DNA from: an uncultured Planctomycetales bacterium
GTDB taxonomy: Bacteria > Planctomycetota > Phycisphaerae > UBA1845 > PWPN01
DNA length: 64,000 nucleotides
Assembly (NCBI GenBank): GCA_964579675.1
Contig: CAZOIA010000004.1
Location: forward strand, 3,551 to 67,550
Direction of reading: 5' to 3'
Both the position numbers and the translations under genes were made by a program. Positions 14,552-57,838 of the stretch are shown here, in pieces. The notes under the pieces are model-generated. The model searched no databases. It was not told the origin of the DNA and was given only the letters and a program-made list of their open reading frames with translations. The first letter of the stretch is position 1. Each line of letters begins with the position of its first letter.

Positions 14552-14554
14552 TTG

Positions 14555-23808: not shown

Positions 23809-24615
23809 CTACCTCCGCAGATTCGCTACCACGCGCAGCATGTCATCCGCGCTCTGGATTGCCTGAGAGTTCAACTCAAACCCCCGCTGGGTGAAGATCA
23901 GGTCCACCAGTTCACGAACCGGCTCGACGTTGCTGCCTTCCAGCACCCCGCTCTTGAGGGCCCCGAGCCCGTCCTCCATCGGGTTACCCTCAATGGGCGT
24001 CCCCGAGGCATCCGTCTCGATGAAGAGGTTCTTGCCGATCGAGAGCAGACCCTCGGGATTAACGAACCGGGACAGCTCGATCTGACCCACCTGCACCAAC
24101 TCCGGGTTGCCCTGCTGAAGAACCCTGACCTGGCCCGTCCGCTCGATCTCGACCTGGATGACGTCTTCCCCCAGGGTCACCGGCGGCTCCAGCAGCGAGC
24201 CGTCGCTGTTGGCCAGCACCAGGTTGCCGTTGGCGTTCTGGACGAAGTTGCCCGCACGGGTGTAGGCAATGATCTCCTCCCCGTTGTGGTAGGTCCTGAC
24301 CTTGAAGAAGCCCGGCCCCTCGATGGCTACGTCCAGTTCCCGACCGGTCAGGTCGAGCGTGCCGTTCTCGAAATTCAGTTGCGTACCCGAGACCTGTACT
24401 CCAAGCCCGACCTGGATGCCGTGGGGGTTCGGCTCGTCGTTGACATCCCGCACGCCCGGCTCCCGGCGAATCTGGTACAGCAGGTCCTCGAAATTCACCC
24501 GCGATCGTTTGAACCCGACGGTATTGACGTTGGCGAGGTTGTTGGCCACCACGTTGAGCTTCGTGTCAAGCGCTCTCATCCCCGTGGCGGCAGCATGCAT
24601 CGCGCTGATACCCAT
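23809..24615 (-). CDS. flgG: distal rod protein FlgG
   Basis: AATGMRALDTKLNVVANNLANVNTVGFKRSRVNFEDLLYQ, LEGSNVEPVRELVDLIFTQRGFELNSQAIQSADDML. Confidence 0.95.
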   Translation of the reverse strand: MGISAMHAAATGMRALDTKLNVVANNLANVNTVGFKRSRVNFEDLLYQIRREPGVRDVNDEPNPHGIQVGLGVQVSGTQLNFENGTLDLTGRELDVAIEGPGFFKVRTYHNGEEIIAYTRAGNFVQNANGNLVLANSDGSLLEPPVTLGEDVIQVEIERTGQVRVLQQGNPELVQVGQIELSRFVNPEGLLSIGKNLFIETDASGTPIEGNPMEDGLGALKSGVLEGSNVEPVRELVDLIFTQRGFELNSQAIQSADDMLRVVANLRR

Positions 24616-24639: not shown

Positions 24640-25401
24640 CTACCGAAGCCGGGCGATGTCATTGACCGCCCGTCCCAACGTCGAATCCGCCAGGCCAATG
24701 AGCGTCGCATTGAGCTCATAGGCCCGGGACACCTCGATCATGGCCACCATTGTTTGCGTCGGATCGACCGTGGAAGCCTCGACCGCCCCCGTGCGCAACT
24801 GCGCGGCCCGCGGCGCCGGCTCCACGCCCACCGCCTCGAACAGGTTCCCGCCGATCTTGCGGAACCGCGAGGTGTCTTCCAAGCCGACTACGCCCAGCCG
24901 CCCGAAGGTCGCGTTGCCCGCACGCACCTCCCCGCTTGCCTCAATCCGCACCTTGTCCGTGGCTTCTTCGGAAACCACGATCGGCTGCCCCTGGTCGTCG
25001 AGCACCGGATGGTTTCCCGCAACCGTGACCAGTTCGCCGCCGGCGTTGAGCGTGAATCGCCCGTCCCGAGTGTAGCGCACCGCGTCCCCGTCACGCACCG
25101 CAAAGAAGCCGTCGCCTGCCAGGGCCACATCCAACGGACCCCTTGTCGCTTTGATCACCCCTTGCTCAAAGCTGGTATGCGTCGGCGCGACGAATGAACC
25201 GCCGGTCATCCGATCCAACCCCGGATTGCTCCAGGACGAATCGGTGATATCCTCCTCGGACGCCACCTGACGCTCACGCACGATGGTCAGATCATGCTTG
25301 AAGCCGGCCGTATCGACGTTGGCCAGGTTATTGGCCAGTACCGCTTGTCGATACTGATTCACCTGAAGGCCGGCTGCTGATTGATAAATGCCATAGACCA
25401 T
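24640..25401 (-). CDS. flgF: proximal rod protein FlgF
   Basis: MVYGIYQSAAGL...LANNLANVDTAGFK, YTRDGRF, VEASTVDPTQTMVAMIEVSRAYELN; directly upstream of flgG. Confidence 0.88.
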   Translation of the reverse strand: MVYGIYQSAAGLQVNQYRQAVLANNLANVDTAGFKHDLTIVRERQVASEEDITDSSWSNPGLDRMTGGSFVAPTHTSFEQGVIKATRGPLDVALAGDGFFAVRDGDAVRYTRDGRFTLNAGGELVTVAGNHPVLDDQGQPIVVSEEATDKVRIEASGEVRAGNATFGRLGVVGLEDTSRFRKIGGNLFEAVGVEPAPRAAQLRTGAVEASTVDPTQTMVAMIEVSRAYELNATLIGLADSTLGRAVNDIARLR

Positions 25402-25488
25402 CGCGTATCCAACCTCGCTTACCGGCGGCTCATTCGTCACGCGGATAGCGCCCGTCCTTCGCTTGAGCCGGTCCAGCTACCGTTTCAT

Positions 25489-25756: not shown

Positions 25757-25771
25757 GCAACCGGTGTGCCA
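25757..25771 (-). promoter_or_regulatory. sigma54 (RpoN) -24/-12 promoter of the flgF-flgL operon
   Basis: Minus strand TGGCAC-ACCGG-TTGC, an exact consensus with exact spacing, oriented toward flgF. Confidence 0.75.
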
Positions 25772-33362: not shown

Positions 33363-34406
33363 ATGACGGGCCTGCAGCGCGTTGTCAAGGTTCTCGCGGG
33401 CCGAGGCGGGGATTCCCCGGGAGGGGGCGTTGACCGCCCGCCGGTCCTGCCGATGGTGCATACCGGCCTGGCGGAGCACGCCGGGGTTCCGCTGGGACGG
33501 TTCTTCACCGACGCCGGGGCGATGGCCCAGGTGATGATCGAGGGCTGCCGGCGGTTCGGCTTCGACGGAGTGCAACTCTCGCTCGGGGTGACCGGTGAAG
33601 CCCAGGCCCTGGGGGCGGCGGTAAGGCAGCCGGCGGACGCGGCGCCGGTACTCAACGAGCATCTTCTGGCGGAACCGGGTCGTCTGGACACGCTCCGTCG
33701 CCGGGATCCGACTACCGGAGGCCGAATGCCCTTGTTCTTCGAGGCTGTCGAGCGAGTCTCGCGGGAAATCGGCAGCGAGGTCTTCATCCTGGCCACCATG
33801 CGGGGGTCCCTGTTGATCACATCCCAGTTGCGCGGCGTGGAGGAGATGCTGATCGACCTGATCGAGCAGCCGGCGCCGGTGGAGGAGATGCTGGCGTTCG
33901 CGACGGACGTGGCGTTGAAGCTTTCGCGGCCGCTGCTGGGCACCGGTGCCCATGGGTTGCTCCTCGGCGAGGCCACCTGCTCGCCGAACTTCATTTCGCC
34001 GGAGATGTACCGCCGTCTCGTTCTGCCTCATCACAGGCGTCTGGTGGCCGGGCTCAAGGAGATGGGCTGGCCGTTCGTGGGGTTGCATGTTTGCGGGAAT
34101 ACGACCAGCATCATTAAAGACATGATCTCGACCGGTGTGGACTTTCTTGACGTGGACTACCAGGTGCCGCCTGATCAGGCGATTTCGCTGTCTGGGGACC
34201 GGGCCGGGCTTCGGGGCAACCTCGATCCCAGCTCGGTTTTCCGTTTCGGCACCCCCGATACCGTGAAGAGGCAAACCGAGGCCGTCTGCGCCGCCGCCCG
34301 CGGGGCGAGATGGATCATGAGTAGCGGTTGCGACATCCCGCCGGGCACGCCGGCTGAGAACATCGCAACGTTCGTCGAGAGCGTTCGGGCATCCACGGCG
34401 GATTGA
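33363..34406 (+). CDS. uroporphyrinogen decarboxylase / MtaA-CmuA methyltransferase family protein
   Basis: VDRPPVLP, NFISPEMY, LHVCG (HxC Zn motif), GNLDPS, SSGCDIPPGTPAENI. Confidence 0.85.
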   Translation: MTGLQRVVKVLAGRGGDSPGGGVDRPPVLPMVHTGLAEHAGVPLGRFFTDAGAMAQVMIEGCRRFGFDGVQLSLGVTGEAQALGAAVRQPADAAPVLNEHLLAEPGRLDTLRRRDPTTGGRMPLFFEAVERVSREIGSEVFILATMRGSLLITSQLRGVEEMLIDLIEQPAPVEEMLAFATDVALKLSRPLLGTGAHGLLLGEATCSPNFISPEMYRRLVLPHHRRLVAGLKEMGWPFVGLHVCGNTTSIIKDMISTGVDFLDVDYQVPPDQAISLSGDRAGLRGNLDPSSVFRFGTPDTVKRQTEAVCAAARGARWIMSSGCDIPPGTPAENIATFVESVRASTAD

Positions 34407-34423
34407 CTCTGGAGCAAGGGCGG

Positions 34424-37216
34424 ATGAATGTGAGTCTTCCGTGCAGGCAATGGCTACTCTCCGGGCTGATGCCTGTTGTCTGTCTCGCTGCCGGAGCGGG
34501 CACGGACCGGCTCACCCGCGACGGCCATCGGGTATCCGTCTCCGTGCTCGCAGGCAAGCTGACCGAGGTCTACCAGGTACGCACGCCGGACGGGTGGCGG
34601 GACGCATTGGCGTACGATGGCCCACAGATGCGACTGGCCAGGCCGATCGACGGCAAGGTGCTGTTCGACTTTGAACAGGACAGCGAGCGGCAGGTGACGC
34701 TTGAGGGGCTGCCGCCGCACGTGCTGACCCACTCCAAGCGCACCAGGTTCCGCCCGCACGGCGAGTGGTTTGTCGGCACCTGCGAGGACGGCAGGGGCGG
34801 CTACAACGATGACTACACCGGTCAGCTCGAGCTCGGGCCGGTCACGCTCCCGCACCGGTACGTCTCGCTGCTGGTCAGCGGCGGACGGAAGCCGGACCAG
34901 GCGTATGTCGCCGTGCTTGATGCCCGGAGCGGCAAGGAGCTGCATCGGGCAACCGGCCGGAGCAGCGAGACGTTTCGGCGCGCCGAATGGGACCTGGCCG
35001 ACTACGTGGGCCGAGAAGTCTCGTTCCGCATCGTCGATCAGGCCACAGGAGACTGGGGCCACATCAATGTGGACCACATCATCTCTCACCCGGATTCCGG
35101 GATGTTGGCCCCGGTGCCCGTCACTTGGACGGGCCTCGAACGCCACGGCGATGCCCTGGCTGTTCGCGGCCGGGCCGACGCGATCGACATCACGCGGACG
35201 ATCACGCTCTCGGATGCCGGCGCGGTAATCTCGCACCGGGCGGTTCCGGATCCACAGTATGAGTGGAACCGCTACGAGGATCGGTACACGTTTGCCGCGG
35301 GCGCACCTGACTTTGTCTGGTCCCAGAGCATCAAGCGCCAGGAAAGCGACCTGATACCTCACTGGCAGTTCAAGTCACCGGCGGTGATCTTTCAGGCAGG
35401 CCCGGTGCTCGCGTCTATCGTTGCGGATTTGCGTCCGCTCGGTGCCGACATGCTCCGCCGGCAGCCTGCCGCCCTGGACCTGGGCAACCCTCCGAGCGGC
35501 ACGCCGTGGTTCAGCTACGGCATCGCGCCGAGCAAACTGACGTCTCATTCGATCTACAGCCGCGATGACGAGGCGAGGTTGGAGTGGGACGGTGCGGAGT
35601 TGGCGATCGACCATATCCTCGTTCTTTCGGGCAGCGAGCCGCCCCGCCAGGGCTACCGCCGGGTCGTGAGCCACCTGTGGGAGACGTTCGGCCGGCCGGT
35701 GCTGCTGGCATCACCCGATGCCCAAACCAACTACGCCAGCAAACAACTGAACCTGTTCGACACGTGGCGGCAGGAGACCTGGCACCGGTACGCACAGGAG
35801 GTCTATCGGGAATTCGACTGCGACGGCGAGCGGTGTGCCGCGCTCGTGTCGAAGCGCAACAAGTGGTCCAACAAGCTCGGCACGAACGAGGATTGCTGGT
35901 TCAACTCGTGGTTCCAGACCTTGCGGACGGCATACGGCATGTACGTGTATGGCCGGCGTGCCGGAGACTCACGGATCATGGAGCAGGCCCGGGGGGTGCT
36001 CAACCTGGCCCTGCACGCCCCGCAACAAGATGGTGCGTTTCCGACGATCTACTGGCGGGGCGAGGACGGCTCGCATAACTGGGTCCGCGACAACGGATGG
36101 GCCGGCCTGCGTGACTGTTACCACGTGTTCGACATGGCGTGGACCGCCTACTGGATGCTTCGCTGGCATCGGGACCTGACGCCCGACGAGGATCGGATCA
36201 TCCCGTTTTGCCGGGCGTTCGGCGACTTCCTGGTCAGCCGGCAGGACAGCCGCGGCGGGATCCCCTGCTGGTTTGACGAGAAGCTGTTGCCCCGCGTCGA
36301 GCTGGCGGAGTTCAATGCCGAGACGGCGGGGGCCGCCCTGTTCCTGGCTGAGCTGTCCGCCGCCACGGATGAGAGGCAATACCTGGACGCGGCACAGCAA
36401 GCGATGACCTTCATCGAGCGGTTCATGCTGCCGCGACACCGCTGGTTCGACTACGAGACCTTCCTGAGCTGCTCGCGGAAGCCGCTGGACTTCTACGATT
36501 CCCACACCCAACAATGGCCGCAGAACAACCTGTCCACGTTCCAGGCGGCCCGGGCGTGCCTGCGGCTGCACGAGCTGACCGGCAAGCGGCAGTGGCGCGA
36601 GCTTGGCGAACAGATCTGCGACTACGCAGCCCTGACGCAGCAGGTGTTCAATCATCCGCTGCTGACCCCGAAGCTGATCGGCGGGTTCACCACGCAGAAC
36701 ACCGATGCCGAGTGGAGCGACGCCCGGCAATGCTACGCGGCGGTGATCTTGCTGGACTACTATGAGCTCACGGGCCGGCTTGCGTACCTGGAGCGTGGCG
36801 TGGCGGCGCTGCGGTCCACGTTTGCCGTGGCTCCATACGAGAACTGGGCCCATAGCGGCAGCGTTGATCGCCCCGGGGCAATGACCGGTCTGCACTGGGG
36901 CACCGGCAGTGCAATGGCATCGGTCGAGATGAAGCACGACCGCTGCCGCGATGCCTACGTCCACGTGGGCCGCCGACACGGCGTGGGGGTCAACGGGTGT
37001 ACGCTCACGGACCTGACGGTGACGCAGCGTCGCGTGAGCTTCAGACTGCACACGCCCTATCGCTGGCCCACCCCGCCGGTGGCGGTGATCGACGGTGCCC
37101 TTGGCCCGCTCGAAGTCATCGTGAACGGCCAATCCGCGGGCCTGCTGTCACCTGGCAAGCTGCACAAGGGTGTTGCCTTGCCGTTCGTCGGGCAATCGAC
37201 TGGAATGCTGCCATGA
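34424..37216 (+). CDS. large secreted glycoside hydrolase-like protein (beta-sandwich plus alpha/alpha barrel)
   Basis: Signal peptide; module VSGG...ATGRSSETFRRAEWDLADYVGREVSFRIVDQATGDWGHINVD resembles the domain seen next to GH32 enzymes; Trp/Tyr-rich helical C-terminal half. Confidence 0.55.
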   Translation: MNVSLPCRQWLLSGLMPVVCLAAGAGTDRLTRDGHRVSVSVLAGKLTEVYQVRTPDGWRDALAYDGPQMRLARPIDGKVLFDFEQDSERQVTLEGLPPHVLTHSKRTRFRPHGEWFVGTCEDGRGGYNDDYTGQLELGPVTLPHRYVSLLVSGGRKPDQAYVAVLDARSGKELHRATGRSSETFRRAEWDLADYVGREVSFRIVDQATGDWGHINVDHIISHPDSGMLAPVPVTWTGLERHGDALAVRGRADAIDITRTITLSDAGAVISHRAVPDPQYEWNRYEDRYTFAAGAPDFVWSQSIKRQESDLIPHWQFKSPAVIFQAGPVLASIVADLRPLGADMLRRQPAALDLGNPPSGTPWFSYGIAPSKLTSHSIYSRDDEARLEWDGAELAIDHILVLSGSEPPRQGYRRVVSHLWETFGRPVLLASPDAQTNYASKQLNLFDTWRQETWHRYAQEVYREFDCDGERCAALVSKRNKWSNKLGTNEDCWFNSWFQTLRTAYGMYVYGRRAGDSRIMEQARGVLNLALHAPQQDGAFPTIYWRGEDGSHNWVRDNGWAGLRDCYHVFDMAWTAYWMLRWHRDLTPDEDRIIPFCRAFGDFLVSRQDSRGGIPCWFDEKLLPRVELAEFNAETAGAALFLAELSAATDERQYLDAAQQAMTFIERFMLPRHRWFDYETFLSCSRKPLDFYDSHTQQWPQNNLSTFQAARACLRLHELTGKRQWRELGEQICDYAALTQQVFNHPLLTPKLIGGFTTQNTDAEWSDARQCYAAVILLDYYELTGRLAYLERGVAALRSTFAVAPYENWAHSGSVDRPGAMTGLHWGTGSAMASVEMKHDRCRDAYVHVGRRHGVGVNGCTLTDLTVTQRRVSFRLHTPYRWPTPPVAVIDGALGPLEVIVNGQSAGLLSPGKLHKGVALPFVGQSTGMLP

Positions 37217-38415
37217 GCGTGTTCTTACCGGATGACGTGTCCCGGTTGTCCTGTCGAGTCGCAGCGATCGGGGTGAGTCTTCTGAGCTGCCTGCCGGCGC
37301 GTGCGCTGGATCCCGAGCCGCTACCGTTTCCGGTGTACGTTGCCTGCCGGATCACCGGAGACATCACGATCGACGGCAAGCTGTCCGAGGCGGCGTGGCG
37401 GGAGACCTCGCTGGGTTGGGGGATGTCCCACTCGATTGAGCCGAACACGCTGTGCCCCGATCCCACTCTGTTCAGGATCGGCTACGACGATGAGTGGGTC
37501 TATCTGTCGCTGGCCGCCTACAAGCGGAGGGTGCAGGACGACATACCCGAGCACGTCTGGAAGCCGCGGGAAACGGACATCATGGATATGCAGGCGGTGC
37601 CCCGGCACAACCGGATGCGCGGGATCATCCCCCCGACCAACACCGCCGACGTGCTGATCTCTCGTGAGGGGCGAACGGTGACGCTGCACTTCGAGCCGCC
37701 CAAAACGCCGACGGCGAAGGTGCACGATTCGCTTGGCGAGCGAGGGCTTGATCTGGAACTGACGCACGCGTACGTGGGTAGCCTGGACGACGCACTGTGG
37801 ACGGTGGAGGTCCGGGTTGGCTGGGATGCGTTGGGTTTCCCGGCTCCGGGCAGCGGCGATGACTGGGCGTTGAACCTCTATCGCGATATCCGTTTCTTCA
37901 GCAACTGGTCGTTCATCTCCTGGATGCGGCGATGGGCCAAGGCCGAGTACTCGCGGTACAACATGGTCGATCGGTTTGGCCGGATCATCTTCCAGAACAA
38001 GCCGGACCTCGGGGCGATCGAGAAGGAGGCCAGGCGGATCGCCGCCGGGCGGGGCCCGGTCCGCGTATTCACGCCGGACGCCTACGTGCGGGTGGACACC
38101 GGGGGGCGGGTGGTCCGGCAATGGTACGCCGATCGGCTCAGGCAGATGCTCAAGTATGCCGGCGAGATCTTCCGCGACCGGACCCGGATCGGGAATGATT
38201 TGCCCTACCATCCGTTCTTCACGGAGCGCAAGCCGCGGGAGCATCTGGCCAAGGCCCAACAGAAGCTCGGCTGGCTCCACGACGCCATGACCGGTCCTGT
38301 GGCGTGGGACGATCCGGCAAGCGGCGTGGCACGAATCGCACACGCGATCCCCAAGGCGAGAGAGGGTTTATACACCTATAAGAAGGAACGGCTGTACCGT
38401 GGCTTGCCGGAGTAG
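37213..38415 (+). CDS. secreted CBM9/DOMON-like sugar-binding domain protein
   Basis: ITIDGKLSEAAW, FRIGYDDEWVYLSL, WTVEVRVGWDALG, WALNLYR; ATGA overlap with the previous stop. Confidence 0.65.
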   Translation: MSVFLPDDVSRLSCRVAAIGVSLLSCLPARALDPEPLPFPVYVACRITGDITIDGKLSEAAWRETSLGWGMSHSIEPNTLCPDPTLFRIGYDDEWVYLSLAAYKRRVQDDIPEHVWKPRETDIMDMQAVPRHNRMRGIIPPTNTADVLISREGRTVTLHFEPPKTPTAKVHDSLGERGLDLELTHAYVGSLDDALWTVEVRVGWDALGFPAPGSGDDWALNLYRDIRFFSNWSFISWMRRWAKAEYSRYNMVDRFGRIIFQNKPDLGAIEKEARRIAAGRGPVRVFTPDAYVRVDTGGRVVRQWYADRLRQMLKYAGEIFRDRTRIGNDLPYHPFFTERKPREHLAKAQQKLGWLHDAMTGPVAWDDPASGVARIAHAIPKAREGLYTYKKERLYRGLPE

Positions 38416-41400
38416 ATTGGCAGTCCTGATGGGTGTGATGGCGACCGCGGCCGTGACGTGCTGCGCGGGGGCGGCTGATCCCGGGCAAGTCGGCGAGCCG
38501 CCCCAGTACGGGTGGCGGCTCAGCGGGGATGCGTTCCTGAGACTCGGGGAGGGCCTGGAGACGCCGCACACCAGGTGGATGAAGCCGGCGGCGGCAGGCA
38601 CCGTCAGGGCGCTCTTTCTGGTCAACAAGATAGCGGCCTACGACGTCGGGGAACTCGGTCGCCGGCTGGACCTGGAGATCCGTGGTATGCCTGCTGAGAC
38701 CTGGCTCCGGCTGGGAGACAACTACTGGCTGTGGCTGTGGCACGAGTCGTCGAGCAACCCGGAGCGGTCGGCCCATTTCGAGGCCATGCTGGACGATGAA
38801 TACGACGTCATCGTCCTGGGCAACTGCCGGTTCCTCTCGCTCTACGAGAGCGTCCAGTACAAGATCCTCAAGAAGGTGGCGGGCGGGTGCGGGCTGGTGA
38901 TGTTCTACCCTCACGACCTTGACCCGCGCATGTTGCGGCATCCGCTTCCCGAAGCCGCCCAGCAGTTGTCGGTCGGGATTCCGTTTGCCGGACTGACGTT
39001 CTACCGGAACCTGTTCATGCTGCGCAAGGACCTGAACCGGCCCGACGAGATCGGCGGGCACCTGTTTCGGGCGTATCAGTTCGGCCGCGGGCGCGTTCTG
39101 GAGGTGGACTACGCGACGCAGTCGAGCGTTTTTGACGCCGTGCCCGGCGCGATCACGCCGTTCGAGGATTACGACTACACGTCCCCGGTTCAGTACGACT
39201 ACCACCAGGCATTGGCGGCCCGATGCCTGATGTGGGCTGCGGGTAGAGAACCGCGGCTTGCGTGGACGAGGCCGTTGCCGGACCGGATGGAGATCGCAGC
39301 GCTTGCCGAATCACCCGCGGACAAGGTGGAATGTCAGTGGTCGGGAGCGGCGGGCATCACCCTGACGCGGCGGACGCGCGTGCGAAACCGCTGGGGCGAC
39401 GTGGCACATGAGCATGAGGAATCGTTCCGGGCCGATGCCGGCGTGATGTCCTGGGAGACGGTCCTGCCGCCGCTGCCCGCAGGAACGCACTTCGTTGATT
39501 TCATCGTCTCCAGCGCCGACGGCGTCGAGAACTGGGGGTCCTTCGCGGTTGACGTCCGGTCGTCGCTGTGGATCAGCGCGGTTGAGCCGGCTGACTCGTT
39601 CTTCGAGCGGGGCCAGGACGTGACGGGTCGGGTGCTGTTGTCGCGCCGGGTGACGGATGACGAGGAGGTGGCCCTGTTGCTGACGCTGCAGGACGGTTAC
39701 GACCGCGTCTTCTCGATGGCACGCAGAGGTGTCCAGGCCGCCACGGACCGCGTTGAGTTCCGGATACCGCAGGGCAACCTCATCGCCTGGGGAGCGCGGC
39801 TGCGCGTGAAGCTCTCGCTTGGCGGCCGTACCGCCGACCAGGACGAGGTGGAGCTGTGGTTCCGCCGGCCGGGGCGGGGCGAGTTCCCGATTGCCATGTG
39901 GGGTGCGATTCCAGGTTACGGGAACCACATCGGCAACCTGCAGATGCGTAAGCTCGGCTTCACGGCCGTCCTGGCTGGTCATCCGATTAACCAGGCCCGT
40001 GACGATCTCGGCTGGATGACTTTCGGCGGCGGGCGCGGGGCGCTGGTTCATTCGCTCGGCGACGAGATCCAGGTGCCGCATCCGAAGAAGGGCGAGGTGT
40101 TCGGCGACTTCCTGAAGAGGCGATACGACTCGATCGACGAACTGGACGCCGCGTGGAAGACGAGCTACACCGCATGGGAAGAAGCGGAGCCGGGCGGCGG
40201 CGTGGAGGATGGTTCGGCGGCGAGCTTCGTTCGCTACCATGATTCGCTGTCATGCGGGGAATCCCTGCATGCCGAGCGTTGTCGGGAAGGGCGCGAATCG
40301 GTCGAGAAGACCAATCCCCAGGGGGTCGTGGGTCCGGAAGGCTCGCCGGTGGGCGACCCGGAGCTGACGTTGCCGGAGGTGACGTTCTGGGGCCCCTATC
40401 TGACGGTTCGAGACAACCTGCTGGTAACCGCCATTGCCAGGCCCGGTACACTGCGCGGGAACTGGTTTGGCGGTTACGTGGAAGACCGCCAGGTGCCCAC
40501 CCGGCTGCGCCACGTTCTGTGGCTGTCGATCCTCGGCGGCAACAACATGATCGAGTACTTCACCATCAGCGGTGGGCTGCTGGCCCCGGACCTGACGCGG
40601 ATGCCGTTCACCGATCAGTTCATGAAGTCGTGGCACCAGCTTCGCCGGGGGCTCGGTCCGCTGCTGGCAAAGTGCCGGCCGGCGGGCAACCCGGTGGCGC
40701 TACTGCACTCGCAACCGTCCGAGCACGTCGGCCGGGCGGGCGGGCAGTGGACGGACACAACCAAGGTGCACGCGTTTATGCTGGACCTGCTGGGGGATGC
40801 GGGCTATGGGCCGCAGTACGTCGCCTCGGGCCAGGTCAAAGCCGGGCGGCTTCAGGACGGCGATATCAAGGTTCTCTTCCTGTTGCACGCCTTCGCGTTG
40901 TCCGACGATGAGATCGCTGGGATCGTGACGTTTGCGGAGAAGGGCGGCACGGTGATCGCGGACATCCCGCCCGCCTGGTTCGACGAACGATGCCGGTTGC
41001 GAGAACTGCGGGCGCTGGATGCGTTCTTCGGGTTGCAGCCGGCTGCCCCCCAGGCGTCATTGAAATGGCGCAGGTCGCTCATGGGGGAGACAGCAGAGGT
41101 CGAGGTTGCCGGCGGCGTCATGCACCTGCGGGGGCGCGATGCGTCACTCGTCGCGGCCGGCTCCGAGACGTTTCCGGACATCCTCGAAAGAGCACATGGT
41201 CATGGCAGATCGGTCCTGCTCAACGGCGTCGTGTGGCAGGAAGGGCGAGCTAACGCCGGCACGGCGCGGGCGTTGCGGCAACTGCTTTCGGACCGGGCCC
41301 GCACGCCGCGGGCCTTCGAGCCAAGCTTTCGTCACCCGCTCGGCAAGCCGGGGATGAAGGTCTATTCGTACGAACGGGGCGACATCCGGATCGACGCGGT

Positions 41401-41884
41401 CCTGCCGCCGGAGGCTACGGACCCGGCCGTCCCCGTCGTGCCTCGCGTCCGGTGGTCCGAAGCGAAACATACGTACGATCTGCGCGAGGAGTCGTACCTC
41501 GGCCACCTGGACAGGCTGGAGCAACGCGTGGACCGCAGCTCACCACTGGTCGTCGCCCGGCTGGATTACCGGGTGGGCGGTGTGCGGATCGACGCGCCGG
41601 CGGCGGCCGGAATCGGGGACGTCCTTACCCTTGCCTGTCACGTGCTCGACGACGGCGGCAAACCGAGGCCCGGCCACGTCGTCCGCGTCAAAGTCGAGGG
41701 TCCCACGGGCATCGAGTACCCGTATTACGGCGCGATCCTCGACGCGATCGGCCCGGAACAATCCTGGCGGATTCCGTTTGCCATGAACGACCAGCCCGGG
41801 CAGTGGCGCATCACCGCAACGGACGTGGTCAGCGGTCAATCCGCCACCGCGTCGATCCGTCTCAGCAAAGGCCAACACCGGTAA
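38399..41884 (+). CDS. large secreted protein with beta-galactosidase (GH42-like) trimerisation domain and C-terminal Ig-like domain
   Basis: Signal peptide; FLKRRYDSIDELDAAWKTSY, VALLHSQPS, IKVLFLLHAFALSDDEIAGIVTFAEKGGTVIAD, PGQWRITATDVVSG. Confidence 0.6.
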   Translation: MACRSRLAVLMGVMATAAVTCCAGAADPGQVGEPPQYGWRLSGDAFLRLGEGLETPHTRWMKPAAAGTVRALFLVNKIAAYDVGELGRRLDLEIRGMPAETWLRLGDNYWLWLWHESSSNPERSAHFEAMLDDEYDVIVLGNCRFLSLYESVQYKILKKVAGGCGLVMFYPHDLDPRMLRHPLPEAAQQLSVGIPFAGLTFYRNLFMLRKDLNRPDEIGGHLFRAYQFGRGRVLEVDYATQSSVFDAVPGAITPFEDYDYTSPVQYDYHQALAARCLMWAAGREPRLAWTRPLPDRMEIAALAESPADKVECQWSGAAGITLTRRTRVRNRWGDVAHEHEESFRADAGVMSWETVLPPLPAGTHFVDFIVSSADGVENWGSFAVDVRSSLWISAVEPADSFFERGQDVTGRVLLSRRVTDDEEVALLLTLQDGYDRVFSMARRGVQAATDRVEFRIPQGNLIAWGARLRVKLSLGGRTADQDEVELWFRRPGRGEFPIAMWGAIPGYGNHIGNLQMRKLGFTAVLAGHPINQARDDLGWMTFGGGRGALVHSLGDEIQVPHPKKGEVFGDFLKRRYDSIDELDAAWKTSYTAWEEAEPGGGVEDGSAASFVRYHDSLSCGESLHAERCREGRESVEKTNPQGVVGPEGSPVGDPELTLPEVTFWGPYLTVRDNLLVTAIARPGTLRGNWFGGYVEDRQVPTRLRHVLWLSILGGNNMIEYFTISGGLLAPDLTRMPFTDQFMKSWHQLRRGLGPLLAKCRPAGNPVALLHSQPSEHVGRAGGQWTDTTKVHAFMLDLLGDAGYGPQYVASGQVKAGRLQDGDIKVLFLLHAFALSDDEIAGIVTFAEKGGTVIADIPPAWFDERCRLRELRALDAFFGLQPAAPQASLKWRRSLMGETAEVEVAGGVMHLRGRDASLVAAGSETFPDILERAHGHGRSVLLNGVVWQEGRANAGTARALRQLLSDRARTPRAFEPSFRHPLGKPGMKVYSYERGDIRIDAVLPPEATDPAVPVVPRVRWSEAKHTYDLREESYLGHLDRLEQRVDRSSPLVVARLDYRVGGVRIDAPAAAGIGDVLTLACHVLDDGGKPRPGHVVRVKVEGPTGIEYPYYGAILDAIGPEQSWRIPFAMNDQPGQWRITATDVVSGQSATASIRLSKGQHR

Positions 41885-41898
41885 GAGAGGAAAAAGGA

Positions 41899-41975
41899 AC
41901 CACCAAGACACGAAGGCACCAAGATAGCAGCATCTTTTCTCCCGGCTTTGCTTTGTGCCTTGGTGTCTTTGTGGT
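41899..41975. repeat. REP doublet, ACCAC(A/C)AAGACAC.AAGGCAC.AAG family
   Basis: Arms 41899-41923 and 41951-41975 form a 25-bp inverted repeat (22/25); a degenerate CACGAAACCGCGAAA copy follows at about 42013. Confidence 0.75.
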
Positions 41976-42194
41976 TTCCGGTGCCTCCAGTACCAGTCTT
42001 GAATAACGAGAGCACGAAACCGCGAAAACACAAGACGATTTCGACCTTGGGCTGTTTCGCGTTGCGGAGCCCCCAATGGGGTCAGGGCAGCGTGGCCCGG
42101 GGGCGTGGAGGCGTTGGGGCCAGGGTGCTGAGACCGGCGATGTTATCGGGTCAACCGGCGCGCGCCGGCTGCAGCCGGCCGACCTATAAAGCGC

Positions 42195-42222
42195 TTAACC
42201 CGGCCCCGGGAGCGACCGATAA
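42195..42222 (+). promoter_or_regulatory. sigma28-type promoter outside the flagellar cluster
   Basis: TTAA-N16-ACCGATAA, the same layout as the fliS promoter; ATG 42230 lies 7 nt downstream. Confidence 0.55.
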
Positions 42223-42229
42223 GCCATCT

Positions 42230-42421
42230 ATGTCGGCATGTTCACCACGTCGAGGGTTAGCGGGGCCCGCGCGGCGCCGGTGGACGCTCGCAACCGGAGT
42301 GATAACCGCCGCGTTCCTCACTGTGCTGATCGTCTTTGTGCACCAGTCCCGAGCGATCAGAGTGAGCTATTGGAGGCTCTGGGGGATGGGTGCGGCGGTT
42401 GCGGATCGAATCCAGGAATGA
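42230..42421 (+). CDS. small single-pass membrane protein (63 aa)
   Basis: RRRW-TLATGVITAAFLTVLIVFV-HQSR; its TGA overlaps the next ATG (ATGA). Confidence 0.5.
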   Translation: MSACSPRRGLAGPARRRWTLATGVITAAFLTVLIVFVHQSRAIRVSYWRLWGMGAAVADRIQE

Positions 42422-44397
42422 TGCAGCCCGACAGCAGCACACTCGCGTGGCTCATCGCGGTGCCGGTGCTCGGCGCGCTGGCGGTGGCTGCCATCGCGCG
42501 CATGCTGCGGCGACGCTGGGTACCCGATGCCGATGCCGTGACGACGGGCACGCTGGCGGCGGTTCTGGTCATGGCCGCATTTCTGACGGCGTTTCATCTG
42601 ATCGCCTTGGGGCGGATGTTGGAGCTGCTATCGGGCCTGTCGGTGGGCGGCATCACGGCGCTGTTCGTGCTGTTCCTGGAGATCGCGCTGGTTCTGATGA
42701 TCCGATACTCACCGGCGGCGCCGGTTTCCAGGCGAGCGCTTTCCCGGTGGGGCGGGCCAAGCCGGGCGGATTGGCTGTGTCTGGTGCCGGTGGTCGGCGC
42801 GCACCTCCTGCTCATGGTCGAAGCGCTGTCTCGGACGCCGACGGGCCATGATGCCCTGAAGTATCATCTGCCGTTGGCGGTAATGTGGATCCGCACCGAC
42901 GCGCTGATCGTGAGACCCGACATCTGGATGTTCGCCCTGCCGGGCAATGGTCATCTGCCCATGTGGTGGCTGCTGAAGTCCGGCGTCGAGCACCTGGCCA
43001 GTCTGGCCTACTGGCCGGCGGGCGTCCTGCTGGCCGGCGCGGTCTGGTCGATCGTGCGGACCCAGCGGGGCTCGCGTTTCGCGGGAATCCTGGCCGTGGC
43101 CATCGTGCTCTCGACCCACCTGGTGGTGTGGCAGATGTATGCCGGCTACATCGACCTGTTCGGGACGGCCTTCCTGGCGGCGGGTATTGCCTCGTTTCTG
43201 CTGGCGGTATCAGAAAAAGAGCGGACGCGGCCGGCCCGGCGACTCCTCGTTGTCATCGCGGGGCTGGCGATCGGCATCGCGCTGGGCACCAAACCGGTCA
43301 ACTGGGGTTACGGCCTTGCCGTCGCGGTGTTCTTCTTCGTCGTTCACCTGTACCGCAACCGCCGGCAATTAGACCTGGTGTTCCTTCTGCCGGTGTTTTG
43401 TCTGGCGTGCTTGGCCTGCTCGATGTTCTGGTTCCTGCGGGCCGCGGTCGAGACGGGCAACCCGTTCTGCCCCATCCAGGTGACGGTCGGTGACCACGTA
43501 CTCCTGAAAGGCTTTGATATCGGCTGGACCGGGCAGGACCCGCCACTGTACATGCTTGCGTCGCTGGGGGGCATCATTGAGTTGCTGCGACGGTTGCCCG
43601 GCTTTGCGGCGACGGTGGATGTGAAGGTCGGGGGCGTCGGGCCGCTGTTTTCGATGTTCGTCCCGCCCGGCATGCTGATCGCCGTGGCCGGCGTCACGCT
43701 GAGAGGACGACGGGCCATGCGCCACGATCGGCTCGTGGTGCTGCTGCTCACCGGTATTCTGTTCGCGGTCTGGGTTCTTGCGATTCGGCACTACGGCCGG
43801 TTCGGGATCATCTATCTGGTGATGGCCACCTGCCTGGCAGCGCCGGTTGTCGGGTGGGTGGCCCGGTTCTGGCCCCGCGTGATCTATGGCGCCGCGCTGG
43901 TGGCAACCTGCCTGGCCTGCGCCACGGTGACGATCGTTCCCTGCGACAGCTTGTGCCGCCGGATCCTGGCCAACGATCTTTCGCGTGCGCACTACTACCA
44001 CATTCCCAAGCTGATCGATGGTTTTCCTGCGGGAACGCGCATTGCCAATCTGACCTCACCGAAGTTGATCGGGGCCCGTGGCCTGACCTATCCCCTGTAC
44101 GGCAAGGGCTTGAAGAACGATGTCATCGACTTCATGACAATCGAGGCGTTGTTCCCGGACCTCAGGCCGACCGTCGAGCAGCTTCAGGAGCTGGACGTGG
44201 AATACGTGTTCCTCCGCGAGCCCATTACCGACGACTGGACCGACGGGACTCGACTTGAACTGATCTACCAGGATCGGGAGGATCCGAACCGCCCGCCCAC
44301 CACGCCCGCCTCACGCATCTATCGCGTGCCCGCCCCCGACACCGAGGCCCGTCACGCAGTAGCGATGACGAGGACCCCCGGCTCAAGTCATCGCTGA
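42418..44397 (+). CDS. polytopic membrane protein, GT-C (ArnT/PMT-like) glycosyltransferase-like
   Basis: More than 12 TM segments; GHDALKYHLP in an early loop, YIDLFGT, LGTKP, WFLRAAVETGNP; soluble C-terminal domain. Confidence 0.6.
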   Translation: MMQPDSSTLAWLIAVPVLGALAVAAIARMLRRRWVPDADAVTTGTLAAVLVMAAFLTAFHLIALGRMLELLSGLSVGGITALFVLFLEIALVLMIRYSPAAPVSRRALSRWGGPSRADWLCLVPVVGAHLLLMVEALSRTPTGHDALKYHLPLAVMWIRTDALIVRPDIWMFALPGNGHLPMWWLLKSGVEHLASLAYWPAGVLLAGAVWSIVRTQRGSRFAGILAVAIVLSTHLVVWQMYAGYIDLFGTAFLAAGIASFLLAVSEKERTRPARRLLVVIAGLAIGIALGTKPVNWGYGLAVAVFFFVVHLYRNRRQLDLVFLLPVFCLACLACSMFWFLRAAVETGNPFCPIQVTVGDHVLLKGFDIGWTGQDPPLYMLASLGGIIELLRRLPGFAATVDVKVGGVGPLFSMFVPPGMLIAVAGVTLRGRRAMRHDRLVVLLLTGILFAVWVLAIRHYGRFGIIYLVMATCLAAPVVGWVARFWPRVIYGAALVATCLACATVTIVPCDSLCRRILANDLSRAHYYHIPKLIDGFPAGTRIANLTSPKLIGARGLTYPLYGKGLKNDVIDFMTIEALFPDLRPTVEQLQELDVEYVFLREPITDDWTDGTRLELIYQDREDPNRPPTTPASRIYRVPAPDTEARHAVAMTRTPGSSHR

Positions 44398-44437
44398 ACA
44401 TAAGACCCATCACGAGACCTCGCTGCGGCACCGGTGC

Positions 44438-45652
44438 TCAACCGGCCCGGCCATAGTCGGGGATCTTCATCTGTTCGCCGTCCTTGAGCGCCGACTGGTG
44501 GGCGATGATGCCGGGAACCGTGTACGCGACCGCTTCGTAGACGTCCACGAACGGGGGCCGGTCCTCGAGCAGGGCGCTGACGAACTCGTGCGTCAGGAAC
44601 GTATGCGAGCCACCGTGGCCGCTCGCTTTCCGCAGCGGCTCGGGCAGCATGTCCGTGTCGTAGTGTTTTGGGATCTCGATCGGTTCGGTCCGGTGGCCGG
44701 GGTTGGGGTACCCGACCATGGCCGGTATCCCCCCGGGCCGCGGCATGAAGAACGACATCTTGTCGCCGTAAAGCTCGCCGCGCTCCGTCCCGCCCGCCGC
44801 CACGTGCCAGAAGACCGACACCCGTGACGAATGACCGCCCGAGGTCTTGAAGAAACCGCTCGTGTTCCAGAAGGGGTTGTGGTAGAGGTTCGATTGCAGC
44901 ACCTCGTGCCCGTCGCCCCACCCGATCGCGCTGACCTCGGTGAACCGTTCGCCGGTCACGCTGGTCAGGATGCCCGTGCAGTGCGTCGGGTAATGCATAG
45001 GCGGGAGCCCGTGCCGCCAGGTGGGCAGGCCCCGCTCGTCGAAGTACAGCCCGATGAGCCCCTCGTGGTGGTACTCCATCTCCGAGTAGAAGATCTCGCC
45101 GAACTTGCCCTTGTTGAACCAGTTGCGGCAGGAGATGACTTCCTGACGGTAGACGCTGGTCTCGGCCATCATGTAACTGCGGCCCGTACGTTTGACGGCG
45201 TCGATGAGCTTCTCGCAGCCTCCCACGGTCATGGCGGCCGGTACGGCCGAGATCACGTGCTTGCCGGCCTCCATCGCCTTGACCGCGTGGTAAACGTGCA
45301 GCGGGGCAGGCGTGAACACGGCAATGGCATCCACGTTCTTGTCCTTGATCAGGTTGTGGAAGTCGTCGTAGCCCACGTCGCACTGGTACCGTTTCCTCAG
45401 GCGATCGAGCGCCTCCGGGCGAATGTCGCACACGGCCTTGACGACCGAGTTGGGATGCTCGTGCCAATAGAAGCTGCATCCGAACCCGCCGCCGACGACG
45501 CCCATGCGGACCTTCTTGCCATCCGCGCCGTCGGCCGCCGTGGCTGATGAGGTCATTGCCGGTCCGATGGTAGTCGCCGCCACCGCGGCTGAACTCATGC
45601 CCTTGATGAACGAACGACGCGTCATGTCCGCATGATCGTGGCTCGGTGCCAT
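44438..45652 (-). CDS. Tat-exported Gfo/Idh/MocA family oxidoreductase
   Basis: TRRSFIK twin-arginine signal; MGVVGGGFG, FTPAPLHVYHAVKAMEAGKHVISAVP, MMAETS; SD GGAGG. Confidence 0.88.
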   Translation of the reverse strand: MAPSHDHADMTRRSFIKGMSSAAVAATTIGPAMTSSATAADGADGKKVRMGVVGGGFGCSFYWHEHPNSVVKAVCDIRPEALDRLRKRYQCDVGYDDFHNLIKDKNVDAIAVFTPAPLHVYHAVKAMEAGKHVISAVPAAMTVGGCEKLIDAVKRTGRSYMMAETSVYRQEVISCRNWFNKGKFGEIFYSEMEYHHEGLIGLYFDERGLPTWRHGLPPMHYPTHCTGILTSVTGERFTEVSAIGWGDGHEVLQSNLYHNPFWNTSGFFKTSGGHSSRVSVFWHVAAGGTERGELYGDKMSFFMPRPGGIPAMVGYPNPGHRTEPIEIPKHYDTDMLPEPLRKASGHGGSHTFLTHEFVSALLEDRPPFVDVYEAVAYTVPGIIAHQSALKDGEQMKIPDYGRAG

Positions 45653-55040: not shown

Positions 55041-56075
55041 TCACCGGAGGGGTACTTCCTGCAGGTCGATGTAATCCTGGTCGTCGGTGCCAAGCCCGAT
55101 GCCGGCGGCGGCGTGTACGTGCGGGATGTGGCCGGCCGCGTCGCCGATCGGGGGCAGTTTGGCCAGAGCCCGCTGATCGTTGATGATGTTCACGCCCACC
55201 GCGTCGGCGGCGACTGGATCCTTGCTGACCAGGATCCCGGCATGATCCCAGATCCCCTGGACGCGGACCGCCGGTCCCCCGTCGAAGAGGGCCCGGACGG
55301 CGTTGACGATGTGGATCCGCAGTTTCGAGCGGATTTGCGGCAGGGCAACAATGTGGCCTGCAAAAGGTGCACAGGCATTGGCGTGATAACGTGCCGGTCT
55401 TCGAATCAATGCATGCGAGAGATTCTTGAGACAGCCGGTCATCCCCGCGATGTTGTGCGTCTTGAGGAAGGGTACGTTAATCAGGGCGGTGACCTCCTGC
55501 AGGACGGCCGCCAGCTCGTCCGCGCCGCTGCCGAACGAGACTTCACCGCCGCTGAAGCCGAACACGCGGGGCCTGGTCTTCAACTCGCGGGCCAACCGGC
55601 CGGGGGCCTCAATCAGAACGATCTTGTCGGGCGCAAACCCCGCATCCCCGAGGGATTCGACCACCTGGGCCGCCAGCACGTCCGCGGTCCCAAGCTCCTC
55701 GAAACCGACCTGGTTGAACTTGATGCCGATGACGTCATCGCGGTTGAACAGTTTGTTCCAGGCATCGCCCGGTTTGGCCGTTGCGGTCGTGACGCACACC
55801 CCGTCTTCCACCATCTCGCGCAACAACCGCTCGTGTAGCTGCCGCCGGTCCACGACCTCCGGGCGACAGACGTGGGCGACGAACGACTTGGCCTCCTGGT
55901 CGATGGGGCCGGTGTCCGGCCGGGTGGCCAATACGGGCAGTGTCGTCGCGGACTCCCCGGCATGGGACGCCGACCCCCCCGCCAGCCACCGGGCCACAAC
56001 CGAAGCGATCCCTGCCCGTCCCACGCGCCGCAAGAACGATCGGCGACTTTCGTCATCCATGATATCTTTCGCCAT
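55041..56075 (-). CDS. Tat-exported DUF362 domain protein
   Basis: SRRSFLRR signal; DVIGIKFN, LINVPFLKTHNIAGMTGCLKNL, SKDPVAADAVG. Confidence 0.8.
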   Translation of the reverse strand: MAKDIMDDESRRSFLRRVGRAGIASVVARWLAGGSASHAGESATTLPVLATRPDTGPIDQEAKSFVAHVCRPEVVDRRQLHERLLREMVEDGVCVTTATAKPGDAWNKLFNRDDVIGIKFNQVGFEELGTADVLAAQVVESLGDAGFAPDKIVLIEAPGRLARELKTRPRVFGFSGGEVSFGSGADELAAVLQEVTALINVPFLKTHNIAGMTGCLKNLSHALIRRPARYHANACAPFAGHIVALPQIRSKLRIHIVNAVRALFDGGPAVRVQGIWDHAGILVSKDPVAADAVGVNIINDQRALAKLPPIGDAAGHIPHVHAAAGIGLGTDDQDYIDLQEVPLR

Positions 56076-56330: not shown

Positions 56331-57838
56331 GAGACTGTAGCATCATTACAGAGCGATTATCCTGTTCTGGCCAAGTGCAGAGCGGTTGCCGTGCGGGTTC
56401 GCCCCGGCGCTTGAGCATCTCGTTGCATGTCCAGGGCAATGCGTTCAACGATTCGCTCGTATGTTCGCACACGGTAGACGCTCTTCTGCATCTTGCGGTG
56501 ACGGCGATTACCTCGCTCGACGGCGTTGGAAGTCGCGGGCAGAAGCGAATCATCCAAGAAGGTCAGCGCCTTTTCCAAGTTGGGTGAGAACAGCTTCTTC
56601 AACGTCTGGCCGACCTTCTTGAAGCGTCGAACCCGTCGCCGCAATTTCGCCAGCTTGTCCAGTGCGGTCTCCGTTCGGCAGCGCCGGTCAAATAGGCGGT
56701 AGACTTCGTTCATGATCTCGCGCAACGCACGGAGATGGGCGAGGCCCCTCGTGATTCGGCGGAGCGTCTTCTTCTCTCCGGGCGTCAGATAATGCTGAAC
56801 GAAGAGATGGCGATGCTGAAAAAGATCGGTGATCTTGGCCTGAATCCGTTTCCGGCGACGAGCCAGTCGTTTCGTCGCCTTCGACGGACGTCCTCGCCCC
56901 AGCTTGGGCATCGTGGCCGCCAGCGACTTGCGGACCTTGGTTACCGCCTTCAGAACCGCTTTGGTGAGTTCGGCGATCACATGAAACTCACAAATCTGGT
57001 GTGGGATCTCGCCAAACACATCAACGATGGGAACCGGATACAGCGGCGAGCCGTCGGTGGTGATGCCGGTCAGCGAAAGCCCACGGGCATTCAGCGCCCC
57101 CCTGAACCGCCGAAAAAACGCCCTCATGTCGTCATGGCTCGGATCGTGGTCAAGGACCTCGTAGATGATTCGTTTGAATGTATGATTGTCCACGATCGAC
57201 AGAACGCAGAAAGGCCCATCGTACACTTCATCCGCGGCGATGTAGCCGGAGAAGTCCGCCAATGCCTGATCAAGATACTCACCGGTGATGTCAGCGGCCG
57301 CCTTTTTCCCCCCCGGCCTCAACCCAGTTCTGAATCGTGGCGAACGGGACGAACACACGATGGTCTCGCCATAAATGCCAGGACGCGGATCGGTACGGCA
57401 GGCCGTCCTCCACCACCAGTCGGACGGCGGTATGGACCACGCGATGGGTGTAGTGGCTCTTGGGCAGGGCCAGGTCATCCATGTCGGCGTTGAAGTAGGT
57501 GTTGCATCCCAGACAGCGGTGCTGAGAGTAGGTGATGTGGAGGTCGCGCGGTCGCCCCGACGCCGGGTCGCCCAGATCATGCAGCTTTCGCACGACGGTC
57601 CGGAGGCGATAGGCGCTTCGGTCACAGTGCGGGCAGGGGCGCCGTTTGTAATTGCGACTGCGCTTGCTGAGCTTGGGCTTCGGCAGATCCGCAACACGCG
57701 TCACCCCTTCGGTCACGTCGGGGACGTACTTCCCAGGGCCGGCCATGACGACTTCCTCCAGAGTGCGCGTCCACCTGGAGTTGTCGGCAAACCGGCCGCC
57801 TGATCAGCAGGAATACTCTGTAATGATGCTACAGTATC
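56331..57838 (-). mobile_element. complete 1508-bp insertion sequence (Mutator-like DDE group, ISL3/IS256/ISH6-related; exact family uncertain)
   Basis: TIRs 56331-56353 GAGACTGTAGCATCATTACAGAG and 57816-57838 (reverse complement GATACTGTAGCATCATTACAGAG), 22/23; 8-bp TSD CGATTTCC at 56323-56330 and 57839-57846. Confidence 0.93.
56357..57746 (-). CDS. transposase split over two frames (orfA 57746-57291, Zn finger/HTH; orfB ~57311-56357, DDE domain)
   Basis: orfA CPHC...HRCLGC; orfB AADEVYD, ITTDGS, QICEFH (CxxH), TSNAVERGN; junction at a G7A5 run (57303-57314). Confidence 0.88.

Follow-up and report, generated by a model that had tools for sequence, protein, structure and literature searches.

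The sigma28 family of sigma factors comprises FliA, SigD and WhiG, and the class III promoter of E. coli reads TAAA-N15-GCCGATAA; GT-C glycosyltransferases take sugars from polyprenyl-phosphate donors and carry out catalysis on the periplasmic face of the membrane. The two are found together in a 64-kb stretch of DNA (hereafter the window; ~64% G+C) from an uncultured Phycisphaerae-like planctomycete of salt-marsh metagenomes, where a sigma28-type promoter sequence stands directly before two coupled genes that encode a 63-residue membrane protein and a 659-residue protein of GT-C fold. The arrangement suggests a cell-envelope sugar modification that is switched on together with motility, and this combination of promoter, microprotein and GT-C enzyme is a variant on known kinds of system.

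The site shares with sigma28 class III promoters the two blocks, the 15-nt spacer, seven of eight -10 positions, AA at -33/-32 and an A at the flipped -11 position, and the same motif is found before the late flagellar gene fliS in this genome and in its clade. Other features differ; i.e. the -35 element is T[G/T/C]AAC and not CTAAAG, and the first -10 base is A and not G, both of which are clade traits, whereas the predicted placement of +1 on the start codon, a target that is not a motility gene, and C or T at -9 in the orthologues are further departures. FliA regulons include non-motility genes, and FliA promoters outside the core flagellar genes are rarely conserved between species (10.1101/188474); unlike these, the site described here is conserved across 49-55% protein identity.

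On the side of the enzyme the closest systems are the GT-C_A members ArnT (GT83) and PMT and PMT_2 (GT39), with which the protein shares the fold, a PF02366 match in its relatives and a C-terminal soluble domain, together with an Asp that is invariant in the first extracytoplasmic loop and Lys/Arg that are conserved in the loops after it. Unlike them it has three extra N-terminal transmembrane helices, only ~14% identity to ArnT, and scores that fall below the Pfam and NCBIfam thresholds. Motility filaments are modified from the outer face by GT-C enzymes such as archaeal AglB, acting on archaellins, and Pseudomonas aeruginosa TfpW, acting on group IV pilins. As in these cases (for the context of P. 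aeruginosa TfpW see PMC11841053), a lipid-carrier GT-C enzyme appears here to be tied to the motility apparatus, in this instance through the promoter motif. However, the substrates of AglB and TfpW are Sec-exported, pilin-like proteins facing the periplasm or the exterior, which bacterial flagellin is not, and linkage to filament genes is lacking here.

Two further systems offer partial parallels. In Bacillus subtilis csbB-yfhO is an envelope GT-C system under the alternative sigma factors SigB and SigX, and it resembles the present operon in placing an envelope glycosylation enzyme under a stress or developmental sigma factor. Ost4 is a 36-residue single-pass mini-subunit carried on STT3, the GT-C catalytic subunit of the eukaryotic oligosaccharyltransferase; here too a tiny single-pass membrane protein is paired with a GT-C enzyme, in one operon and together in eight loci, but the small protein is without sequence relation to Ost4 and the partnership is an analogy. 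The bacterial small partners encoded next to GT-C genes that are known to us (GtrA, ArnE/F) are flippase-like proteins of four transmembrane segments and not single-pass proteins. The flagellin glycosylation systems (Maf, Pse/Leg) employ soluble cytoplasmic GT-A or GT-B enzymes, usually encoded beside the flagellin genes, unlike the integral-membrane GT-C enzyme of the window, whose gene lies at least 28 kb from the flagellins; all bacterial flagellin glycosylation of which we are aware is cytoplasmic.

The promoter site and the fliS promoters of the clade

Read directly, the plus strand carries CTTAAC-N15-ACCGATAA at 42194-42222; i.e. TTAA at 42195-42198 is followed by a 16-nt gap, by ACCGATAA at 42215-42222 and then by 7 nt (gccatct) up to an ATG at 42230. 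These coordinates are those given in a preliminary description of the window, which had also likened the site to the fliS promoter. The likeness holds: GTTAAC-N15-GCCGATAAC (5506-5535, minus strand), which with GCCGATAA as its -10 octamer occupies 5535-5507, lies 11 nt before the fliS ATG at 5495 and has the same layout. The -35 element CTTAAC (42194-42199) fits the clade fliS -35 consensus xT[G/T/C]AAx, and TAAC at 42196-42199 followed by the 15-nt spacer provides a TAAA-like -35 at sigma28 spacing. The spacer ccggccccgggagcg (42200-42214) is equal in length to those of all 22 fliS promoters used for training (see below) and of all homologous loci, although its sequence is not conserved with the homologues. 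The -10 element (42215-42222) agrees at eight of eight positions with ACCGATAA, the commonest -10 form of the clade fliS promoters, and at seven of eight with the canonical GCCGATAA.

The structure of the P. aeruginosa sigma28 open complex on the fliC promoter assigns the -10 element as (-15)GCCGATAA(-8) and the -35 element as (-36)TCTAAAG(-30), with the A at -11 flipped out (PMC12784957). When this numbering is applied to the window, the last A of the -10 element (42222) is -8, the element occupies -15 to -8, the TAA of the -35 element occupies -34 to -32, and +1 falls on 42230, the A of the small-gene ATG; the invariant A of CGAT is then at -11, the flipped position of the solved complex. 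The predicted transcription start, which depends on this numbering and on the fixed spacing, agrees with the 42229-42230 expected beforehand. By the same numbering the fliS leader is 4 nt long. With +1 on the A of the ATG the mRNA would therefore be leaderless, and the message for the small protein and the GT-C enzyme probably is so. The invariant spacing between -10 element and ATG fits leaderless initiation, as does the use of ATG only, although the genome is rich in GTG and TTG starts.

To judge the rarity of the motif, 80 loci encoding FliS relatives were taken from metagenomes, and nearly all of them have a promoter-like block just before fliS; the same promoter is found upstream of fliS in related loci L032-L111. 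A position weight matrix (PWM) of the -35 hexamer and the -10 region was trained on 22 distinct fliS promoters of related metagenomic Phycisphaerae, the window being excluded, and these 22 give the clade consensus xT[G/T/C]AA[C/T/G]-N15-ACCGATAA-N11-ATG. A scan with a local consensus had been proposed in the preliminary description; with this independent matrix, run over both strands of the window (127,942 positions), the fliS promoter of the window ranks first at 23.9 bits and the candidate site second at 18.4 bits, ahead of the next match at 15.5 bits. In first-order Markov simulations with the dinucleotide statistics of the window, 0.02 sites scoring 18.4 bits or more are expected in 64 kb, and the exact pattern TAA-N17-CCGATA is found twice, at fliS and at the candidate site, against 0.06 expected, in keeping with an earlier rough estimate of well under one chance occurrence per window. 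The matrix is specific in related DNA as well: 308 kb of DNA flanking fliS contain 35 sites of 14 bits or more, of which 33 are fliS promoters.

The site is conserved along with the genes that follow it. Eight relatives share 49-55% identity with the large protein, and DNA was recovered for seven independent loci (L001, L002, L003, L005/L031, L030, L112/L113 and L115). Close homologues are present in the assemblies GCA_052744855.1, GCA_041890195.1, CAZPIO01 and CAZTQK01; a genome-collection scan with the single protein as query gave no match, whereas an alignment-based scan found matches. In all seven the site is kept, with CCGAT 17 nt after T[T/C/G][A/C]A and the ATG 9 nt after CCGAT. This last distance (7 nt after the -10 octamer) and the ATG start are the same in eight of eight independent loci when the window is included. 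T-35 and A-32 are invariant in the alignment of the eight GT-C loci plus fliS, and across the loci CGAT and A-8 are invariant as well; the -35 variants of the homologues (TTAA, TCAA, TGAA) are the variants also seen in fliS promoters. In most of the seven loci the site is the best PWM match of the whole locus, and apart from an upstream TTATCGG element the remaining intergenic DNA is not alignable among the loci. The site in the window is intergenic, correctly oriented and situated after a strong hairpin that probably closes the upstream gene. The independent clade matrix and the orthologous conservation together support its reading as a sigma28-type promoter.

The upstream element, TTATCGGGTC at 42143-42152 in the window (strand unspecified), is the reverse complement of a CCGATAA-type octamer. 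As TTATCGG(A/G)(C/T)(G/C) it precedes the -35 element in six of the seven other independent loci, usually by 32-34 nt and in L005 by 144 nt, and it is absent only in L030; it is situated at L001 7732, L002 3655 and 3709, L003 1532, L005 5640, L112 3224 and L115 786. A divergent minus-strand sigma28 promoter at the TTATCGG of 42143-42149 was considered and rejected, there being no conserved -35 element and only low PWM scores.

The small membrane protein and the GT-C enzyme

The small open reading frame (ORF; 42230-42421, plus strand) encodes 63 residues with a basic N-terminus, one transmembrane segment at residues 19-37 and a C-terminal S..(V/I)R..YW motif. At an ATGA junction the stop codon of this ORF (TGA, 42419-42421) overlaps with the start codon (ATG, 42418-42420) of the 659-residue ORF. 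Such a single-pass ORF, coupled by ATGA to a polytopic protein of ~660 residues, had been picked out in the preliminary description, and it is real: the seven other loci keep both the small ORF and the arrangement. In each of the seven an ORF of 55-57 residues is found at the same place and can be aligned with that of the window. The homologues share the layout of basic N-terminus, one transmembrane segment and C-terminal S..VRQLYW, and G23, L33, F36, S40, R44, Y47 and W48 are invariant. The small ORF has no Pfam and no NCBIfam match, and a profile search of 5.8 billion proteins returned only four called relatives. The small protein is a real, conserved and rare family, and this membrane partner of 55-63 residues is mostly missed by gene callers. 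The small protein, which is conserved, co-inherited and translationally coupled, is best read as the membrane partner of the GT-C enzyme, which by analogy is its most likely role.

The enzyme gene (42418-44397, plus strand; 659 residues) is defined by the starts of its homologues, by an AlphaFold2 (AF2) model and by Foldseek. A longer in-frame reading of 719 residues from 42238, the extension given by the ORF lister, was rejected; its 60 extra residues look unlike protein, and the longer form is considered not real because 13 homologues align from the 42418 start. The public collection likewise holds the 659-residue form. The protein has 13 hydrophobic segments, arranged as three N-terminal transmembrane helices, a PMT/ArnT-like core and a C-terminal soluble alpha/beta domain (~520-640). 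The AF2 model, built from a 13-sequence alignment, has a predicted local distance difference test score (pLDDT) of 77 and a predicted template modelling score (pTM) of 0.83, and shows three confident helices at residues 6-96 ahead of the core.

When this model was compared with the PDB by Foldseek, the check that had been suggested for the proposed fold, matches 1-20 were all GT-C proteins. The best is ArnT 5f15 (E 2e-6); 5f15 and 5ezm have template modelling scores of 0.56-0.59 normalised to the target at ~14% identity, and further matches include AglB, PglB, DPY19, ALG9, AftD, Pmt4, ALG3, AftA/B and Emb. The modelled structure thus places the large protein in the GT-C fold. By sequence the relationship is at the edge of detection: a family profile searched against the PDB gave no match, whereas PF02366 (PMT) is matched at a permissive E <=1 by seven of the 13 aligned members (best E 2.5e-5), and one of these at 49% identity, P0008, passes the PMT gathering score (23.8 vs 22.7 bits) over the equivalent of window residues ~200-345. 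The distant relatives P0014 and P0015 carry PMT/PMT_2 (PF02366/PF13231), and the NCBI name of a 49%-identical relative is "phospholipid carrier-dependent glycosyltransferase".

Three core residues are invariant, D145 (in GHDALKYHLP), D246 (in YIDLFGT) and K292 (in GTKP). D145 is invariant in 13 sequences, down to 26% identity, and lies at the start of the helix after core transmembrane helix 1 (H116-138). Since the PMT match covers window residues ~200-345, core helix 1 would be at ~116-138 and D145 in the first extracytoplasmic loop, where GT-C_A enzymes carry the catalytic acid. Judged by the fold, the donor would be a polyprenyl-phosphate sugar used on the periplasmic face. A polyprenyl-phosphate sugar synthase (GT2) was not recognised among the window ORFs scanned, and in L001 a GT2 gene is situated 6.4 kb upstream. 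An exhaustive hidden Markov model search shows the extent of the family, with 309 clusters (at 50% identity) at E <=1e-30 and 2623 at E <=1e-10, and nine of ten sampled representatives are without a Pfam match. The three-helix N-terminal extension appears to be a trait of the family, because most matches align from about profile position 7.

Probable regulon membership and competing explanations

On the basis of the promoter and the two proteins, the following course of events is proposed. From a FliA-family sigma28 promoter at 42194-42222, transcription would begin on the A of the ATG (42230) or immediately beside it and give a leaderless bicistronic mRNA. Its first cistron would yield the 63-residue single-pass membrane protein, with the N-terminus in the cytoplasm, and its second, coupled through the ATGA overlap, the 659-residue GT-C enzyme, whose uncharacterised family borders on PMT/ArnT. 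With the small protein most likely as its membrane partner, the enzyme would use a polyprenyl-phosphate carrier as the source of its sugar; transfer would take place at the periplasmic side of the inner membrane, and the acceptor would most likely be a lipid or glycan of the envelope or else a protein exported by Sec. Through sigma28 the modification would be coupled to late flagellar assembly, when the cell is motile. Taken as a whole we consider this explanation probable, and membership of the operon in the flagellar regulon is likely for this lineage. Retention of the promoter in loci at ~50% protein identity, the predicted +1 being always at the start codon, suggests that a connection of motility with envelope glycosylation has been selected. 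Of the preliminary description, which had proposed a late flagellar regulon member, the sigma28-type promoter, the small ORF with its coupling and the GT-C fold are thus borne out; for regulon membership the evidence is the promoter motif, and that part of the claim is carried forward at reduced strength.

A number of findings weigh against this explanation. The full sigma28 match is present only in the window's copy among the eight loci. In the homologues the -10 element is CCGATCAA or CCGATTAT, and of ~70 fliS promoters inspected not one has C or T at -9; the orthologous sites score only 1-10 bits on the fliS matrix because of this C or T, and the ancestral promoter may have been weak or read by another sigma factor. 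Flagellar neighbour genes were not seen at the homologous loci, and among the genes of the 64-kb window neither fliA nor flgM was seen. In the window, good fliS-type matches are lacking before fliD, flgKL and all three flagellin genes; the best site of the flagellin region, CGGAAC-N15-TCCGATAT (10753-10724, minus strand), scores 3.5 bits and precedes the start of the third flagellin gene (10336) by ~390 nt. Because the flagellin genes are without a good match, the motif is documented here as a fliS promoter and not as one of late flagellar genes in general. The site and an evident small ORF or linkage are absent in GT-C relatives that are more distant (<=35% identity; Acidobacteriota and other Planctomycetota), and promoter, small ORF and enzyme therefore form a module of one Phycisphaerae subfamily. 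As for the genes themselves, G+C at third codon positions is only 0.68 in the small ORF, and the 659-residue protein has no PMT, PMT_2 or other Pfam match and no NCBIfam match above threshold. Finally, the window sequence found no match among RNA-seq runs, its matches being in salt-marsh metagenome DNA runs only.

Several of these findings would be accommodated if the conserved block were a real promoter for a sigma factor other than FliA (the housekeeping factor, another group-3 paralogue or a planctomycetal extracytoplasmic function (ECF) factor), the operon lying outside the flagellar regulon and the CCGATAA of the window being lineage-specific drift. The homologue -10 forms foreign to fliS promoters and the flagellin genes without the motif speak for this, as do TATTAT or TATTGT in the spacer of several homologues and a clade -35 (TGAAC) that includes the AAC typical of ECF promoters. 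However, a sigma70 -10 element in the spacer was rejected, since TATTAT is missing in the window and in L030 while T-35, A-32, CGAT and A-8 are invariant, and TTAAGT-N17-GATCAA agrees with the sigma70 consensus at only six of 12 positions. The TATAAA at 42185-42190 (plus strand), which the preliminary description had held out as a sigma70 alternative, is present but is judged not functional, being without a -35 element and without a counterpart in the homologous loci, and a scan of 41700-44700 gave no sigma70-type promoter. The 8-bp ACCGATAA with a 15-nt spacer is moreover a sigma28 signature, identical to the clade fliS -10 element. A sigma factor other than FliA is on these grounds regarded as doubtful, though not as negligible. 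It is improbable that the conserved sequences are instead a cis-regulatory RNA or DNA element of a longer 5' untranslated region, e.g. with TTATCGG pairing to CCGATAA so as to control translation of the small ORF. TTATCGG indeed complements CCGATAA exactly and recurs upstream in most loci, the minimum free energy fold of the window pairs the two, and a compensatory pair is possible, in that the CGGAC core of the element is complementary to a GTCCG after the -35 element in several relatives and is replaced in the window by CGGGT with ACCCG. But an RNA structure or riboswitch was rejected, because the region from TTATCGG to the ATG folds no better than shuffles in five loci (z -0.9 to +1.0) and the structures differ between loci; L030 lacks the upstream element yet keeps -35, -10 and ATG, the element is 144 nt away in L005, and pairing leaves a conserved -35 at the exact sigma28 spacing unexplained. 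The region is also without an Rfam match and is separated from the upstream gene by the strong hairpin.

A functionless match arising by chance from base composition draws on the over-representation of CCGATAA in the window (11 copies vs 3.8 expected; within fliD and the flagellin genes several copies read as Ala-Asp-Asn codons) and on one non-fliS site of 20.4 bits in related DNA. It is contradicted by the conservation already described, the position being kept in seven other loci whose flanks are otherwise unalignable, and is hardly compatible with an intergenic, oriented site at a fixed distance from a conserved ATG where 0.02 such sites are expected per window; it is given very little weight. 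Nor is it at all likely that the GT-C enzyme glycosylates the flagellins, the strongest version of the glycosylation of flagellar or envelope components that the preliminary description had offered as possible. The central flagellin domains are, as had been remarked there, rich in Ser and Thr (21-30% vs 9% in reference proteins), the promoter is of sigma28 type, and cytoplasmic Maf/Pse-type genes were not recognised among the window ORFs scanned. But flagellin passes unfolded from the cytoplasm to the filament tip inside the flagellar type III channel and never meets the periplasmic side, on which GT-C enzymes work, and this makes it an unlikely acceptor; the operon is also separated by 28-37 kb from the genes for flagellin and FliS, and its homologues are unlinked to flagellar genes.

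Under the sigma28-directed operon proposed above, the plausible acceptor is a lipid or glycan of the envelope or a protein exported by Sec. A more specific version, tentative and rather unlikely as it stands, would have sigma28 directly control a dedicated GT-C enzyme with a single-pass micro-subunit, made from a leaderless mRNA; in motile cells specifically, the pair would modify either periplasm-exposed motility parts (the P/L-ring or further flagellar proteins exported by Sec) or the envelope around them. Knowledge of promoters and regulons in the Planctomycetota is almost nil, and what is gained here is a clade sigma28 matrix, T[G/T/C]AAC-N15-ACCGATAA, backed by dozens of fliS loci, together with one conserved non-flagellar target of a sigma28-type promoter and a concrete candidate for leaderless translation in Planctomycetota. 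To these is added a new family pair, an uncharacterised GT-C family of 309 clusters that is barely present in Pfam and, in one subfamily, its dedicated membrane partner of 55-63 residues. If the more specific version is true, the operon would be the first example, within a bacterial flagellar regulon, of glycosylation at the periplasmic face, and would provide the first functional handle on this family of several hundred clusters.

Operon surroundings and the flagellar cluster

The operon is bounded upstream by a 1161-residue ORF without known domain (38399-41884, plus strand; stop at 41884) and downstream by a convergent GFO/IDH/MocA oxidoreductase gene, neighbours that are unrelated to motility. 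After the 1161-residue gene stands a near-perfect 83-nt hairpin (41896-41978, plus strand; dG -52 kcal/mol, z -4.96, 0 of 200 shuffles as stable) with regularly spaced single mismatches and no U-tract, which is not repeated elsewhere in the window and probably closes the upstream transcription unit; Rfam gave only spurious microRNA-precursor matches, to this hairpin, in the 345-nt intergenic region. The 1161-residue ORF is the last of three consecutive large ORFs (937, 472 and 1161 residues; 34403-41884, plus strand) for which neither Pfam nor NCBIfam gave a match. Where the downstream gene of a homologous locus has a Pfam annotation, a gene of ~950 residues with TPR and Peptidase_MA_2 domains is found 3' of the GT-C gene (L001, 10329-13133; L002, 6091-8967; L003, 4129-7023; L030, 2842-5721; and the P0003 contig). 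No copy of it is present in the window, and the window operon is therefore taken as two genes ending against the convergent gene. In L001, L112 and L113 an MBOAT gene and a 383-residue unknown gene precede the operon.

The flagellar genes are all on the minus strand, ~17 kb (flgF) to 37 kb (fliS) from the GT-C operon, which is 28-37 kb from the flagellin and fliS genes taken together. The cluster comprises flgF (24640-25440), flgG (23809-24615), flgA (22470-23714), flgH (21709-22737), flgI (20451-21632) and flgN (19637-20158), followed in order by flgK, flgL, fliW and csrA, then by three flagellin genes (13100-14557, 10830-12272 and 8915-10336), fliD (5598-8708) and fliS (5034-5495, with its ATG at 5495). 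Between flgI and flgN lies a 96-residue ORF (20161-20451) that was considered as FlgM and rejected; it resembles a FlgJ-type rod-binding protein and has no Pfam match. A perfect sigma54 promoter consensus, TGGCACaccggTTGC, is found at 25757-25771 (minus strand) upstream of flgF and is the sole exact match in the window; because of it the rod and ring genes appear to be sigma54-dependent and fliS to be of sigma28 type. None of the three flagellin genes has a sigma54 site either.

Directly 3' of fliS, on the same strand, is a 530-residue TPR ORF (3321-4913) with an apparent signal peptide (...AGSAGLAEAQD). A relative of this ORF is downstream of fliS in 33 related fliS loci by tblastn, and fliS and the TPR gene thus look like a conserved late flagellar operon of the clade. 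The third-ranking match of the PWM scan, CTCAGG-N15-GCCGATAA (56169-56140, minus strand; 15.5 bits), is intergenic and lies ~80 nt upstream of a gene (55041-56054, minus strand) whose product is a DUF362 protein with a twin-arginine signal, possibly a further member of the regulon. An ORF at 56357-57697 (minus strand) resembles an ISL3-family transposase, with a weak match to PF01610 (E 1.5e-5).

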